DNA of 64,000 bases. Origin: an uncultured Erysipelotrichaceae bacterium. Its GTDB lineage: Bacteria > Bacillota_I > Bacilli_A > RF39 > UBA660. The stretch lies in the NCBI GenBank assembly GCA_902788975.1, contig CADAMI010000012.1:5148-69147 (forward strand), given 5' to 3'. Positions within the stretch are counted from its first letter, which is position 1; every line of letters begins with the position of its first letter. The notes beneath the pieces are model-generated. The model had not been told where the DNA came from. It did not search any database and was given only the letters and a program-made list of their open reading frames with translations. Of the stretch, positions 3,439 through 22,605 are shown in pieces. The position numbers were made by a program, and so were the translations under genes.

Positions 3439-3990
3439 GTGTATACAGTGAAAAAAATTGGAAATTTTTTATTTGATATTGTCGTTGGAGTTTGGCTTAT
3501 TGTAGCTATATTTGTTACGATATGTTTGCTTTCATATAATGAATTTAAAGTTTCTGTTTTTGGAAATACTTCATTATTGATTATAGATAGCGATGCTATG
3601 GAGCCTGATTTTAAAGAGGGCGATCTCTTAATTATTAAGCGAAACAGCGATAATAAAATAAATGTTGGTGACAAGGTGTTTTATTATAATAGTGCATTGG
3701 ATAGTAATGTATGGATTTATTATGATACTGTTCAAAACAAAACACCAATTACCAGAGATGAAACGACTTTCGTTATAGATGGTGAGAAGGTTTCTAGTCA
3801 ATATATTATTGGTAAAGCAAACGGGTCGAAAGTAATGCATAAGGCCGGAACTTTTCTAGGAATATTTACATCTAGATGGGGTTTTATGTTCTTAGTAATA
3901 TTCCCAACATTATTTGCTATTATTTATGAAATAATGATGATAATTGATGCAAGACGTGAGTTAAAAATGGCTAGTAAAAATGAAGAATAA
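3439..3990 (+). CDS. SipW-like (ER/archaeal-type) signal peptidase I paralog, predicted catalytically inactive
   Basis: Same architecture as the two other SipW paralogs (N-terminal TM, xSxSMEP box, GD..V box, C-terminal TM). The Ser box reads DSDAMEP (Ala at the nucleophile position). The THR(I/V) His box of the other paralogs is absent (GDKVFYYNSALDSNVW). Confidence 0.6.
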   Translation: MYTVKKIGNFLFDIVVGVWLIVAIFVTICLLSYNEFKVSVFGNTSLLIIDSDAMEPDFKEGDLLIIKRNSDNKINVGDKVFYYNSALDSNVWIYYDTVQNKTPITRDETTFVIDGEKVSSQYIIGKANGSKVMHKAGTFLGIFTSRWGFMFLVIFPTLFAIIYEIMMIIDARRELKMASKNEE

Positions 3991-20500: not shown

Positions 20501-22605
20501 CCGGAATATATAGTAATCAATATGGCCCAGGAGATACGTTGGATTGGTCTGGTTTGTTTGCTAAAGGTAGTTATGTTTTAGGTAAGCATTTAACTAATCA
20601 TAATATTAAAGTTAATGGATTTTACAGTAATTTTATGAATGAAGAGACACAAGTAAATGAAGTAAATTATATTGATCCAACACCAAAGGATTCGCAATTT
20701 TATATGTGGTATATTGGGGAAAATATAATTGAATATAATGTTAATTTGGTGGCATCAAAATACTCTACATTAGGTTCGGTAGAGCAATCATTCTTAGAGT
20801 TTTCTAAACCAAATACCTCTTTCCAGATTGAAAGTTTCGATATTTCAGATATTGCTTCTGGAATATCATTGGTGGATAAAAATAATATTCCTAGAATTGC
20901 TGCTAACAATAATGATGCTAACAATATATTTGGTTTAGCAATGGAAGCAAGTAATAATGGTTGGTTAACGACTGGTAAAACATCTTTTTATACGACAAGC
21001 CCTTGGATGCAAGGTGTAACGTATTATGAAGGTGAAAACTCTACAGTTGTTCCAACGATGTTGTTCTATTTATATCACTCTAAGAATATTACGGAAACAA
21101 AGGATTTAGGAACAGTTCGTATTACGATTAAGGCAATTACTAAAATAAATGCTTTATCAAGTGAAGTAGAAAGATTAGTTGTTAATGTCAATATGTCAAC
21201 GGCATTGTTCCAAACAACTGAATATGAAGGAGCGATGACACCCGGTGATAAGTATGATTTATTTACTTCAACAACTACGAATATTACAACAAAGAGTAAA
21301 TTCAGTGTATATTACGGACTATATTCAGCTGGTACAAATATTTATCAAAGTGGTTATCATAGAGCTTTGACATCATCTTATATTCTTCCGGAGAACACTA
21401 AAATAACAATGATTGATTTTGGTACTGGAACGACAGAATACTACTATCATGTTATTACGGCTCAAGATGTTGCTAATGCGCAAAGTGAATTTCAATCAGA
21501 AAATGAATGCTCTTATAATTTATCATTATTTACTCGTATGGGTAGTTTAAATAACAATAGTAATTATGATGATGCGGCTAAGAATGCTATTTATTATGAC
21601 GGAACAAATAGTAGTGAAGAATTTATCTTTATTGTCGATTTTTCTGACACTGATATTCAAAGTGATCAATTAGAAAAAAAATTATTAATAGAAATAAGAG
21701 ATGCCAATGATGAGGGAATAATTACCGTATTAGGTATTCAACATGATCAATTAACTTATAATTTATATTCAGGAAAAGATTCAATAATTAATGAGACGGT
21801 TGTTGCATCGGCTAATCCACTTTATATTGGTTATAATGATACTTTTGAAGTTTCTATTGACTATCAAAATTCTAATTTAAGTGGGGTAGCCATTACTGAT
21901 ACACAATATTTTGATTCTAAATTAGGAGTACAAATTGCTATTAAAGATGCTAGAGGAAATGTTGTTTCTGGAACTGACCTTACGGGTGCTTATTTCCTTA
22001 TTGATGGAACAAGATATTACCCTGATATTGCTGGATATACACATATTAAATTAGCTAATAAAGTTGGTAATACGAAAAAATGGATTATCTTTAATACCGA
22101 GAATGCAAGTCTTGGAACTGGTTCTTATACATTTACTTTTGAAGCTTTTGCATCGACGGATGGTATATATTATAGTTCTGGTGCTTCGTCGTTTGTTAAT
22201 CTACCAATAGATATAATAAATAGTAAATATGGTCTTAATCCAGTACTAAATGAAGATAGTGTAATATTTAACGAAAAGGGGACGGATAGAGCATTGAAAT
22301 TTACAATTAATTATACATCTCTTTTGAGTAATCCTAATTTACGTATAGCATTGTATCGTCGTGAATATGATGAAATATATGACATTGATTATGATTTGGT
22401 TGATTTACAAGATTATGTATCGTCTACATTGACAACCACTGCTAATCCAAGTGAATATTTACTGTCAAATAGTCCATCACAAGTTAATACGTATGCACTT
22501 CTTTTAAATGATGATTTAATGACAGGGACATATAGATTAGCCTTTAGATTATATGATAGCAATACGATGATTGGTGAAATCAATCAATATATAGTAATAA
22601 AGTGA
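14536..22605 (+). CDS. Giant (2689 aa) secreted/surface beta-solenoid repeat protein
   Basis: Single uninterrupted ORF. N-terminal signal/TM (LLIAVFLIAMLLTW). Central block of roughly 30 tandem 25-aa units, each carrying a YGG(G/S)N motif (e.g. TVTNIYGGSNTLGNVSTTNVDILSG). Gly/Asn/Thr/Ser-rich composition typical of parallel beta-helix fibres. RBS aggagagtagg. Confidence 0.8.
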   Translation: MNKLKAFIKQHKYSLLIAVFLIAMLLTWNFMNSFSETTTDSAWDGVVARQFTSGTGSTDNPYVIANASEFAYFKSLLEGEDASLYAHKNYKLVGSFNYGKYDLAINNKVPFSGTIDGCGNKIYNASLSNMLFNILDGATIKNLQLVSLSYTLINETGAIVANDIKNSNIEMLLVNCDVNVQNDSTFGGLVYNSSDTTYKNIIIDYNIDSENENIFNFAYTMDNDNGANILIKDNNYQNTYCETNINFNKFNIKDGNINLIDVDNLNEFVSDNYKIIIKNNEFNFEEITNDLNNESQADDSSEHPNEHSNMLKSVVRNSTITVHDQGIDGTTIYINNLLSDSNYFKGLNHTEVLSTSIPSGVSTGYYDDSNLVKVAVVYDGTDINNANLVGAVSPINSENVNKYVYYKYYPLERTSSGDLATDNNGNNYIRIELIDNPFSKRPYVSTTEYGFNGWACNQGNSSDGVCESATFSFDNDIYTRYVDIAIDGSSEFTLYLNANWINADVVTSYYNISSFNSMTMENLPTHPVQYVIHHIASPHWKQNYTTMEYYQSYNRYSQMPTTTGYYYKTSTTSTTYYRLRNGNRTCQRTTCYVYRANTSGITSGSLYEGGTVEFFPNYNASSNTIYSTTISDYNTTYMNLVDDPNGTIEYDETATANRMILGDGSTAGSYYYKVTNPTAAMINTGEYYNSDGSVCTNANNCRTAYKLIQYNDTVTNSDGTSIYNINADGNGNIIDQDNYYYLVTRDTNIFRYTSTTALEMDYLQVNKPFTVTGTAVNGTSVTGVLEYPTGWGWDSSAEDFTASNDIVIENIKIYGPGGTGSDNLGIGDDDSYTSYVIYANSKNLKIGRNVVSSRDSSYLVANGIFNGTNTSVTGRFKVIVESGIYSAFHTGPVDPYGRDGSRQHNTTTSTYNALTVLGSDYDRVKVDNSKLKFFIGLDGMSGGYNNALSGNFIAFTTVKSGMYGFNADGTPSTDYTAGLYLGGHGYTDYFQVNNTTGAKIEGGKINIVVGGVGYSGSATTNANYIGMSGGEVRQIYGGAGTNTTKGNRIINVTGGTINYSILGGSNSSSSNSSTDGIVDGDTLVYVGGNVTVGTENDELYLVESGSIFGAGGGNTNYSSLGTVKNSHVIINGGTINKSVYGGGNFGSTGTQSSSAASTVIDIYKGTIGNVYGGSKSAGFSTSQYASSSTIDINMTGGTVGNIYGGSNEKGTIYGSTDIDITGGTISNNIYGGGQGENTFVTNDVDVTIGVANVANTPTVGGNVYGGSAFGTVNCATTSGNATGDTTVTVDNGLVTGSVFGGGQGSSTATPYVLGDITVNINGGDITSVFGGNDQAGSHTAVNEVYLNGGIIENVYGGGNRSSVTNTNIYMDGSTVTNIYGGSNTLGNVSTTNVDILSGTVQNVYGGNNEGGTCGTTDVNVTGTASINGSIYGGGNQVATTTTTVTLNSANGTVPNVYGGGNSASVTTSNVTNNGVTATNIFGGSNSSGTVTTANVTYNSGTSTNVYGGNNAGGNTVTSNIDINNGTITTVYGGGNQANGGTSNVDIGGGNITSVFGGGNSAGLTQSNINVTAGTVGDVYGGSNNSGTVTIANIDVATGTITNIYGGGNRAEVGTPTVVVDGGAVANIYGGGNLAQVTGNTIVDINGGTISGNVYGGGNYGVVKGSSNVTITNATILGNAYGGGNGSSATLEGNTNITIDGNTTIGNASSVAPNSGCVFGGGNQALTGIQDNNNSTSSVNIVGGTINGNVYGGAKFSVIYGNTIVNIGETAYTSNSLTKSDIYVKGNVFGGGEANSSGSEIYDWSFISVTQGVNISIDADTYQNFQIDGSFFGGGNASSATGDSYLTIRNYGSGMNPKRNVSIQRVTYVTIDNSSILLAGAIDRANEYDNELFSISRVDDFKLQNNSYIFFVTGANLLKNFQSLDSSGNPAVVTITDDYRITNRSVDNRVYMYEGKNLNVAEDQQVTVYGEVTGMSFFGIFNYANGGINTGIYSNQYGPGDTLDWSGLFAKGSYVLGKHLTNHNIKVNGFYSNFMNEETQVNEVNYIDPTPKDSQFYMWYIGENIIEYNVNLVASKYSTLGSVEQSFLEFSKPNTSFQIESFDISDIASGISLVDKNNIPRIAANNNDANNIFGLAMEASNNGWLTTGKTSFYTTSPWMQGVTYYEGENSTVVPTMLFYLYHSKNITETKDLGTVRITIKAITKINALSSEVERLVVNVNMSTALFQTTEYEGAMTPGDKYDLFTSTTTNITTKSKFSVYYGLYSAGTNIYQSGYHRALTSSYILPENTKITMIDFGTGTTEYYYHVITAQDVANAQSEFQSENECSYNLSLFTRMGSLNNNSNYDDAAKNAIYYDGTNSSEEFIFIVDFSDTDIQSDQLEKKLLIEIRDANDEGIITVLGIQHDQLTYNLYSGKDSIINETVVASANPLYIGYNDTFEVSIDYQNSNLSGVAITDTQYFDSKLGVQIAIKDARGNVVSGTDLTGAYFLIDGTRYYPDIAGYTHIKLANKVGNTKKWIIFNTENASLGTGSYTFTFEAFASTDGIYYSSGASSFVNLPIDIINSKYGLNPVLNEDSVIFNEKGTDRALKFTINYTSLLSNPNLRIALYRREYDEIYDIDYDLVDLQDYVSSTLTTTANPSEYLLSNSPSQVNTYALLLNDDLMTGTYRLAFRLYDSNTMIGEINQYIVIK
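17600..20060 (+). repeat. Coding tandem repeat, period about 75 nt (25 codons), roughly 30 copies
   Basis: Recurring tatggtgg(c/t)gg(t/a)aa strings at about 18598, 18669, 18745, 18826, 18903, 18975, 19050, 19125, 19197, 19270, 19343, 19417, 19494 and 19572. Spacing 70-81 nt. Confidence 0.7.

Follow-up and report, generated by a model that had tools for sequence, protein, structure and literature searches.

What an McrBC-derived GTPase does in the middle of an operon for signal peptidases and secreted proteins is the question raised by a 21-kb gene cluster, conserved in uncultured gut Bacilli, that lies at positions 3439-24259 of the window, the 64,000-nucleotide stretch from an uncultured Erysipelotrichaceae bacterium analysed here. 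Our reading, which we judge somewhat more probable than its contrary, is that the locus encodes a chromosomal, sortase-independent surface-fibre or adhesin system of the CoCoPALM class, whose subunits are processed by signal peptidases (SPases) and whose assembly is gated or driven by the GTPase. The evidence comes from the GTPase and its partner, from the cohesion of the gene set over many genomes and from the signals of the secreted products, and it is compared throughout with an earlier description made from the letters of the window (the sequence-only reading).

Organization of the cluster

The cluster comprises 17 closely spaced open reading frames (ORFs) at 3439-24259, with intergenic gaps of -14 to +30 nt and one exception, the divergent region between m201 and s237 (Table 1). 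The genes appear to form three transcription units, namely ten forward genes at 3439-11768, one reverse gene at 11765-12370 and five forward genes at 12591-24259, and the divergent region likely holds the promoters of both units that flank it. Starts given earlier at 5441 and 11133 are corrected to 5432 and 11118.

Table 1. Features of the cluster in window coordinates; arrows mark the cleavage position in cleavage-type motifs, and TM stands for transmembrane.
Feature	Description	Position	Strand	Evidence or remark
SP1	SipW/archaeal-type SPase homologue, N- and C-terminal TM segments	3439..3990	+	TIGR02228 40 bits, below cutoff
s188	secreted ~19-kDa beta-sandwich protein, m201 paralogue; T-[YF]-[AG]↓L-F-E	3980..4546	+	blastp, HHalign, motif
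SP2	active-type SPase I	4556..5431	+	TIGR02228 67 bits; Peptidase_S26 5e-07
s201	secreted small paralogue; T-x-[SA]↓[KR]-Y-E	5432..6037	+	HHalign: m201 95%, s188 94%
s305	secreted, weakly related to small family; T-[FL]-[GA]↓[RK]-Y	6041..6958	+	HHalign: m201 71%
c325	cytoplasmic, no TM	6970..7947	+	no Pfam, NCBIfam or PDB match
GTPase	McrB-like AAA+ GTPase, 509 aa	7951..9480	+	E. coli McrB is the only PDB family matched
McrC-like partner	369 aa, DUF2357 N-terminal domain and helical C-terminal half	9490..10599	+	Pfam DUF2357 E 4.6e-11
SP3	active-type SipW/archaeal SPase I	10604..11131	+	TIGR02228 78 bits
s216	secreted small paralogue; N-x-[FY]-A↓W-F-I-Y	11118..11768	+	HHalign: s188 95.9% over 153 columns
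m201	secreted small paralogue, opposite strand; T-Y-A↓K-Y	11765..12370	-	motif, profile links
Intergenic region	divergent, 220 bp	12371-12590	.	sole large gap of the cluster, between m201 and s237
s237	membrane-anchored protein, TM 25-43, without cleavage motif	12591..13304	+	C-terminal W-x-EGDDxDC in common with s395
s395	putative major subunit: signal peptide, invariant STYA↓WFTAN, beta-rich body	13318..14505	+
Giant protein	2689 aa, secreted, beta-solenoid-like	14536..22605	+	s395-like N-terminal signal, G-rich repeats, no LPXTG
s44	44-aa helical micro-protein ORF (..NQELIQIYRLVLEHLEYLNNEKSKVEE..), no TM	22602..22736	+	no family match
p508	cytoplasmic K/E/N-rich helical protein, no TM	22733..24259	+	no family match

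The GTPase module and its class

The AAA+ portion of the GTPase displays the Walker A motif GISGTGKT, the Walker B motif LDEMN and the invariant signature GTINNDDS, and the match to E. coli McrB (E 0.004 with the single sequence, 4e-4 with the profile) covers Walker A, Walker B and signature. Its N-terminal parts are a conserved amphipathic segment, a single TM helix at residues 58-76 and a heptad-rich, charged coiled coil at ~88-126, and residues 52-133 give weak matches to Pfam FtsL_2/FtsL (E 0.03-0.04, below cutoff). The membrane McrB-like NTPase that the sequence-only reading had placed in the operon is thus borne out, both by the McrB match and by the TM helix. That reading had missed the adjacent gene, which encodes the McrC-like DUF2357 protein. 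Searched as a profile against the PDB, the C-terminal half of this partner retrieved only a designed helical protein and no PD-(D/E)xK nuclease was detectable; a long coiled coil is not evident in it. No DNA-binding domain was found in the pair, the N-terminus of the GTPase consisting of the TM helix and coiled coil.

Such a combination has already been named. CoCoPALM is a large clade of NxD-type McrB GTPases defined by Bell et al. (eLife 2024, PMC11090510), in which a TM/coiled-coil McrB GTPase is combined with a McrC homologue and signal-peptidase-family proteins, with coiled coils usually present on both the McrB and the McrC homologues; the class is covered there in one paragraph, its analysis being deferred to a future publication (PMC11090510). 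The examined supplements of that paper contain no CoCoPALM text, and no later paper bearing the name was found in the collection of papers searched. Since every feature stated for the class is found here (an McrB-like GTPase, an FtsB-like TM segment plus coiled coil, an adjacent DUF2357 gene without a nuclease, and SPase genes), the locus is a CoCoPALM member. The signature GTINNDDS can be read as N-x-D followed by D, in agreement with the published description of the NxD clade and compatible with it, and it can also be read as NxxD. The claim of the sequence-only reading that the locus has no described counterpart therefore falls, by the very outcome that it had itself named as refuting, an existing catalogue entry for the gene combination.

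Outside the class, the nearest relatives of the GTPase domain are NxD-clade McrB homologues on plasmids of diverse bacteria (35-38% identity), annotated only as hypothetical proteins or AAA family ATPases; the plasmid search returned relatives of the AAA+ domain only and no CoCoPALM. These relatives, from a clade described in PMC11090510, could be taken to indicate a conflict or defence system, in which an McrBC-derived sensor related to the CoCoNuTs would be coupled to membrane or surface effectors and would act through remodelling or shedding of phage receptors or through abortive infection set off by processed, membrane-active proteins. An Abi_2 gene 1.3 kb upstream and the variation of the giant gene in natural populations (insertion sequence, truncation) fit the same idea, which we nevertheless regard as improbable: neither a nuclease nor a DNA-binding domain is present, Abi_2 occurs in 0 of 82 related loci, and the cluster is chromosomal, syntenic over many species and has its NTPase under extreme purifying selection, unlike the patchy and fast-evolving defence islands.

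Co-conservation of the gene set

A synteny matrix computed by tblastn over the 82 related loci reveals that the whole gene set stays together, with its order sometimes changed. No other gene comes near the NTPase in conservation: its identity is 63-96%, that of s395 33-76%, and the mean column identity of the NTPase orthologues is 79%. The full-length architecture of TM helix, coiled coil and AAA+ domain is retained in representatives down to 35% identity. The system is common, as its GTPase family forms 760 clusters (50% identity) at E<=1e-30, a metagenome scan with distant GTPase representatives yielded at least 577 NTPase loci, and s395 relatives occur in 470 species-level genomes. Nearly all of these genomes are metagenome-assembled genomes (MAGs), the scaffold-level Clostridium sp. 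CAG:1193 being an exception; the labels of the s395 carriers include Bacilli, Erysipelotrichaceae, Tenericutes and Mycoplasmatota, and the system was found in assemblies from human gut, rumen and other animal guts.

The metagenome loci, which span a GC content of 0.26-0.49, share a recurring core of an s395-like gene, an s237-like gene, an SPase, the GTPase, a DUF2357 gene and a second SPase. The distant loci also encode other proteins whose signals read ..AWFT, ..SWFT or ..SWVE, often together with an ORF of 1800-2400 aa, and their DUF2357 proteins measure 362-989 aa, mostly 660-990 aa. A sample of 25 distant NTPase-centred loci with at least 6 kb on each side contains a DUF2357 gene in every case, always adjacent to the NTPase, at least two SPases in 21 loci, an s237-like gene in 23 and an s395-like gene in 20; an ORF of at least 1000 aa is present in 15, a count limited by flank length. 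The co-occurrence of the McrB-like gene with SPases, put forward in the sequence-only reading as something to look for in related genomes, is upheld by this context search, with an SPase in 24 of the 25 distant loci. Seen from the other side, 33 of 43 s395-centred full-flank loci contain the NTPase.

The same arrangement recurs in dozens of independent genomes and so is not due to chance, and the NTPase is clearly integral to the cluster rather than an insertion. That an ordinary McrBC restriction cassette was inserted into a TasA-like operon, as the adjacency of the McrB-like and McrC-like genes might suggest by its likeness to restriction cassettes, is accordingly a reading to which we attach next to no probability: the pair is kept with SPases and with s237/s395-like genes across rearranged orders and across the GC range given above, the GTPase is TM-anchored and its partner is devoid of a nuclease, and co-occurrence effectively refutes the proposal.

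Two active-type signal peptidases and a conserved dead copy

The three SPase homologues belong with archaeal/SipW-type SPase I (NCBIfam TIGR02228 and the SipW model) and are related to each other with HHalign probabilities of 96-99.8% (SP1 against the SP3 family, 98.4%), and family alignments built from the 82 related loci separate them by their catalytic residues. The Ser, His and Asp positions are kept in 22 of 22 SP2 sequences and in 48 of 48 SP3 sequences. In SP1, over 41 orthologues, the nucleophile Ser is replaced by E/D and the His by G/D, and the GDxNxxD box is deleted in 40 of the 41; given these losses SP1 is a conserved pseudo-peptidase. SP2 and SP3 thus have both the hidden Markov model score (NCBIfam TIGR02228 cutoff, 51.85 bits) and the Ser/His(/Asp) residues of archaeal- or endoplasmic reticulum-type SPase I (S26B), and SP1 does not qualify. 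The three SipW-type peptidase genes reported earlier do therefore exist as homologues, but only two of them are catalytically competent. SP2 has in addition a second TM helix followed by a charged helical tail of ~130 aa, which must be cytoplasmic.

Signals and kinship of the secreted proteins

A single N-terminal hydrophobic segment is present in eight products of the locus. In six families, each with 41-82 orthologues, it is accompanied by a cleavage-type motif that the orthologues conserve, [TSN]-x-[AGS]↓x-[FY]: position -1 is small, -3 is mostly T, S or N, and +2 is aromatic. The sequence-only reading had ascribed a SipW-cognate N-terminus to seven proteins; the pattern holds for six and is conserved in their orthologues, but the product of the gene at 12591, s237, is devoid of the motif. 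This protein, one of the better-conserved secreted components (39-84% identity), looks like an uncleaved membrane anchor.

The kinship of the small proteins becomes visible mainly at the profile level. Pairwise BLAST links only s188 and m201 (E 1e-11; HHalign 99.9%), and HHalign connects s188, m201, s201 and s216 along the whole or the greater part of each protein at 90-99.9%, except for s201 with s216, which align over 36 columns. The C-terminal tail of s395 is related to that of s237 (91%) and to that of m201 (90%), and the N-terminus of s216 resembles that of s395 (96%). The single paralogous family proposed before is thereby retained for the genes at 3980, 11765(-), 5432 and 11118, is extended to 13318 only through its tail similarity to 12591 and 11765(-), and takes in 6041 weakly, at 71%. 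Similarly, the C-terminal motif that several members were thought to have is present in its strict form, W-x-EG-x-D-x-DC, in s237 and s395 and is confined to these two; its Cys is the sole Cys of s237 and likewise of s395, where it lies in the invariant YMWIEGQDIDCENNASG loop. With respect to gene content, s305 is co-conserved in 46 of the 82 loci and m201 keeps its place beside s237/s395 even in the most reduced arrangements.

The putative major subunit s395 has the site S-T-Y-A↓W-F-T-A-N, of which the W, F and N are found in 100% of 82 sequences. Its structure model (predicted local distance difference test score, pLDDT, 81; predicted template modelling score, pTM, 0.80) has no Foldseek match in the PDB, sequence-profile searches of the PDB with s395 and the small families returned nothing meaningful, an exact-protein look-up of s395 gave no record, and its 2107 homologues are all unannotated. 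The conserved N-terminus that cleavage would expose is poorly placed in the monomer models, with pLDDT below 50 for residues 30-39 of s395 and residues 31-61 of m201, which is compatible with a donor strand.

The giant protein and its companions

The giant protein contains 25 G-rich [VI][YF]GG[GSN] repeats, mostly of 24-27 aa (range 24-43), at residues ~1035-1830, and its N-terminal signal aligns with that of s395 (HHalign 94.6%). No Pfam or NCBIfam match was obtained with the protein, also when it was cut into six pieces. Its gene is present in 67 of the 82 loci. Two loci of the same species from other metagenomes differ here: in L086:14-832 an insertion sequence with an rve transposase directly follows s395, at the position of the giant gene, and in L085:1-786 the giant gene is called at 1837 aa vs 2689 aa. 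These differences point to population-level variation of the giant gene.

The giant repeat protein, which the sequence-only reading took for the end of the locus, exists as described, but the locus gains two more co-conserved genes beyond 22605, s44 and p508, and ends at 24259. The s44 ORF shares 4 nt with the end of the giant gene and another 4 nt with the beginning of p508, recurs at the same position in ~30 related loci (tblastn, E<=0.1) and was called by gene callers in L001 and L003. The p508 gene is always beside the giant/s395 module and is present in 42 of 43 full-flank loci; c325 lies directly upstream of the NTPase throughout this lineage and is present in 33 of the 43. The locus has four cytoplasmic partners.

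Many distant loci (L087-L166) encode a protein of ~250 aa that is a stand-alone EAL domain (E 1e-25 to 5e-47), located immediately upstream of the s237-like gene in 34 of 35 cases (e.g. L093:7776-8522, L119:7383-8144, L141:5409-6164). Catalytic E, DDFG aspartates and K are all missing from its consensus, and their loss suggests a cyclic di-GMP (c-di-GMP) receptor rather than a phosphodiesterase. A degenerate EAL domain was also considered for c325, on the basis of a visual pattern and of position; HHalign gave 6.8% and the PDB profile search was empty, leaving a hint only. In L003, a minimal locus, a GGDEF gene lies just upstream.

This receptor-like neighbour of the putative anchor brings forward a further explanation, to which we assign a minor share of the probability, in which no polymeric fibre is made and the locus is a regulated apparatus for the display or release of a giant adhesin. 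The small proteins and s237 would together make an anchoring complex near the membrane. Whether the 2689-aa protein is retained or released would be set by the SPases and by SP1, a pseudo-peptidase that could hold a substrate, and the GTPase (in relatives together with EAL and c-di-GMP) would be an inside-out switch, in concept like LapD/LapG/LapA. It is in keeping with this explanation that s395 and s237 are accompanied by the giant gene and p508, that the signal of the giant protein is of the same type as that of s395, and that Hpt, REC-HD-GYP and hybrid kinase genes lie just downstream in the window. It fits less well with the large ORF being found in only 15 of the 25 NTPase-centred loci (subject to the flank length already stated), with the absence of a LapG-like protease from the locus, and with s395 itself, a very large family whose N-terminal strand and C-terminal loop are strongly conserved, as for a self-polymerising subunit.

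Proposed mechanism

In the fibre reading, Sec would export the subunits, whose signal anchor would hold them in the membrane, and SP2 and SP3 would clip these membrane-held precursors. The highly conserved N-terminus exposed in this way (WFTAN..V.I) would serve s395 as donor strand for polymerisation into a fibre, in which the small paralogues would be minor, adaptor or tip subunits; s237, left uncleaved, would anchor or nucleate the fibre close to the membrane, in analogy to TapA. For the giant beta-solenoid protein we propose the part of an adhesin at the distal end or of a cargo that the fibre displays. The acidic W-x-EG-x-D-x-DC loop may hold Ca2+, a role known from cannulae in the TasA superfamily, or may form a disulfide. 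From the cytoplasm, a hexameric GTPase with its McrC-like plug, c325, p508 and s44 would gate or drive assembly by GTP hydrolysis. The GTPase would be coupled to assembly by its TM/coiled-coil stalk together with the coiled-coil tail of SP2, and could serve as a switch that regulates the process or as a motor that powers it mechanically; the degenerate EAL protein of the more distant members may add a c-di-GMP input. The guess of a fibre or adhesin apparatus made in the sequence-only reading is thus the best supported and fits the guess of Bell et al. for the class, while its mechanism is what we infer. A bolder form, for which we see a real but distinctly smaller than even chance, is an uncharacterised surface-filament machinery in which the McrBC-derived hexameric GTPase mechanically drives or gates the polymerisation of SPase-processed beta-sandwich subunits together with the display of the giant adhesin, in a system widespread among uncultured gut Bacilli/Bacillota; the GTPase would there replace a PilB-type ATPase, an usher or a sortase, and some lineages would add the c-di-GMP input.

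Several observations weigh against the fibre reading, and the first concerns the TasA/camelysin family. No locus protein matched Peptidase_M73 (PF12389)/TasA at E<=0.1, no match to Peptidase_M73 appeared at E<=10 among 25 family members, and no secreted protein matched the NCBIfam SipW-cognate signal TIGR04088 at E<=0.1. Against a TasA/CalY comparison family of 111 sequences, all PF12389, each secreted family stays below 10% in HHalign, and only the merged small family scores higher, at 65.8%, and this along no more than 62 N-terminal columns (signal, first strands and PG loop). On the supporting side, the motif of the six families follows the same pattern as TasA TWA↓AF, as a sequence pattern only; the TasA SipW site GGGTWA↓AFND was confirmed from the mature chain of PDB 8aur, with the mature N-terminus at A28. 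According to PMC10269814, SipW is specialised for substrates with a P2' Phe, and the aromatic P2' makes TasA SipW-specific. The traits of the TasA superfamily include a signal peptidase I signal, an adjacent dedicated SPase, donor-strand complementation and Ca2+ sites (PMC12518558). Membership of the small proteins in TasA/camelysin, as implied by the sequence-only reading, is therefore not established, the common ground being the way in which signal and cleavage site are patterned and, probably, a beta-sandwich of a generic type, with no family match. The secreted products are best described as pilin- or adhesin-like beta-sandwich proteins with a TasA-type signal, for which TasA-family membership is not demonstrated.

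The second group of observations concerns the GTPase. TasA-type fibres assemble without NTP or an NTPase, so an energy-requiring step would be without precedent. Within 10 kb, 10 of the 43 s395-centred loci have no NTPase, and from this the GTPase module depends on the fibre module more than the reverse. The minimal arrangement (L030, L039, L040, L047, L048, L072, L082) consists of s237, s395, p508, an SP2-like SPase and the giant gene; such loci carry neither NTPase nor DUF2357 gene nor c325 within 10 kb and so show that a fibre module need not be accompanied by a GTPase module. The fibre module may thus not need the GTPase, which favours a regulatory over a motor role, and the 10 NTPase-less loci together with TasA-type self-assembly make regulation or gating somewhat likelier than a true motor. 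Finally, the whole class is known from sequence alone.

Surroundings of the cluster

Ahead of SP1, the first gene, there is a hairpin resembling a terminator (3331-3353) and, at 3389-3417, a promoter-like site of the extended -10 type, both of them weak evidence. Promoter-like sites also lie in the divergent intergenic region, at 12478-12507 (+) and 12428-12399 (-), where a consensus match is weak evidence given the AT-rich DNA; the window has a GC content of ~0.22-0.38, and scans for promoters and terminators were uninformative, finding fewer sites than in shuffled sequence. HtrA and Abi_2 genes form the upstream flank, the latter an abortive-infection-like gene at 1214-2149 (+) between a YqeH-like gene and HtrA. 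An Amidase_3 gene with four LysM repeats lies downstream. Directly 3' of the amidase, 25632-29534 (+) encodes an Hpt-like ORF (HALKSNCRTLG), a REC+HD_5 (HD-GYP-type) protein and a hybrid histidine kinase, which together may make up a c-di-GMP phosphorelay close to the cluster. None of these genes turned up in the flanks retrieved for related loci, and no conserved link is claimed. Further along, a large serine recombinase (Resolvase+Recombinase) at 36241-38100 (-) adjoins a tRNA gene at 38587-38657 (-) and may mark the edge of an integrated element, and an Rfam DUF3800-I small RNA motif occurs at 57639-57764 (-) with 56 bits, above the gathering threshold.

A spore germination permease gene (Spore_permease) at 39567-40655 (-) indicates that the organism probably sporulates. 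Together with a Coat_F gene near one related locus and the sole invariant Cys in s395 and in s237, which could form intermolecular disulfides like those of Ena appendages, it raises the idea that the fibres are a sporulation-associated appendage or spore-coat fibre, made during sporulation and decorating the spores, in the manner of the original account of TasA/SipW and of Ena appendages. We consider this quite improbable, as no sporulation promoter or regulator evidence accompanies the locus and many carriers are labelled Tenericutes or Mycoplasmatota-like reduced Bacilli; it would moreover be a special case of the fibre model rather than an alternative mechanism.

Comparison with known systems

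Sortase-dependent Gram-positive pili are defined by LPXTG motifs and a pilus sortase, and the locus has neither, with no LPXTG-like C-terminal motif in any of its proteins and no sortase match. Type IV pili and type II secretion offer a functional analogy, a cytoplasmic NTPase coupled through the membrane to the assembly of peptidase-processed subunits, and LapD-LapG-LapA offers another, in which proteolysis controlled by a c-di-GMP receptor governs a giant adhesin; unlike these systems, the locus has no PilB, PilC or PilD, no class III signal peptides and no LapG, and its AAA+ protein belongs to a different clade. A closer likeness is seen with tapA-sipW-tasA and sipW-calY, where an archaeal-type SPase is likewise encoded beside its substrates. 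The sites agree in T/aromatic/A at -3 to -1 and in the aromatic P2', the subunits here are probably beta-sandwich proteins too, s237 resembles TapA as an anchor-like accessory paralogue, and Ca2+ may be bound by the acidic loop, as it is in cannulae, which belong to the TasA superfamily with AbpA/AbpX and the Saci_0406 threads. In contrast to the TasA operons, the locus has one dead SPase copy besides two active ones, between six and eight substrates, a protein of giant size, an McrBC-derived GTPase module with three further cytoplasmic proteins, and no detectable Peptidase_M73 homology.

The GTPase module in turn resembles McrBC type IV restriction systems and CoCoNuTs in pairing an AAA+ GTPase of McrB signature with a DUF2357 McrC-type partner, but here neither a DNA-binding domain nor any nuclease, PD-(D/E)xK or other, is detected, and the GTPase is membrane-anchored within an operon for secreted proteins. 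If the fibre reading is true, a restriction-enzyme motor has been exapted for cell-surface assembly, which would be a new way of building pili or adhesins in wall-bearing, sortase-poor gut Bacilli; many of the carriers are RF39-like or 'Tenericutes'-labelled MAGs, functionally almost unexplored. The closest counterpart is CoCoPALM itself. The McrC homologue of the window is short for that class (369 aa, against 660-990 aa in most distant loci) and shows no evident long coiled coil. Absent from the published account (PMC11090510) are the secreted AWF-motif families, the anchor s237, the giant protein, p508 and s44, the pseudo-peptidase and the connection with EAL proteins. The locus is thus a new, well-resolved member of the named CoCoPALM class, and through it a class that was named but uncharacterised gains a parts list of AWF-type substrates, an s237-type anchor, a dead peptidase, a giant cargo, p508/s44 and a link to EAL proteins.

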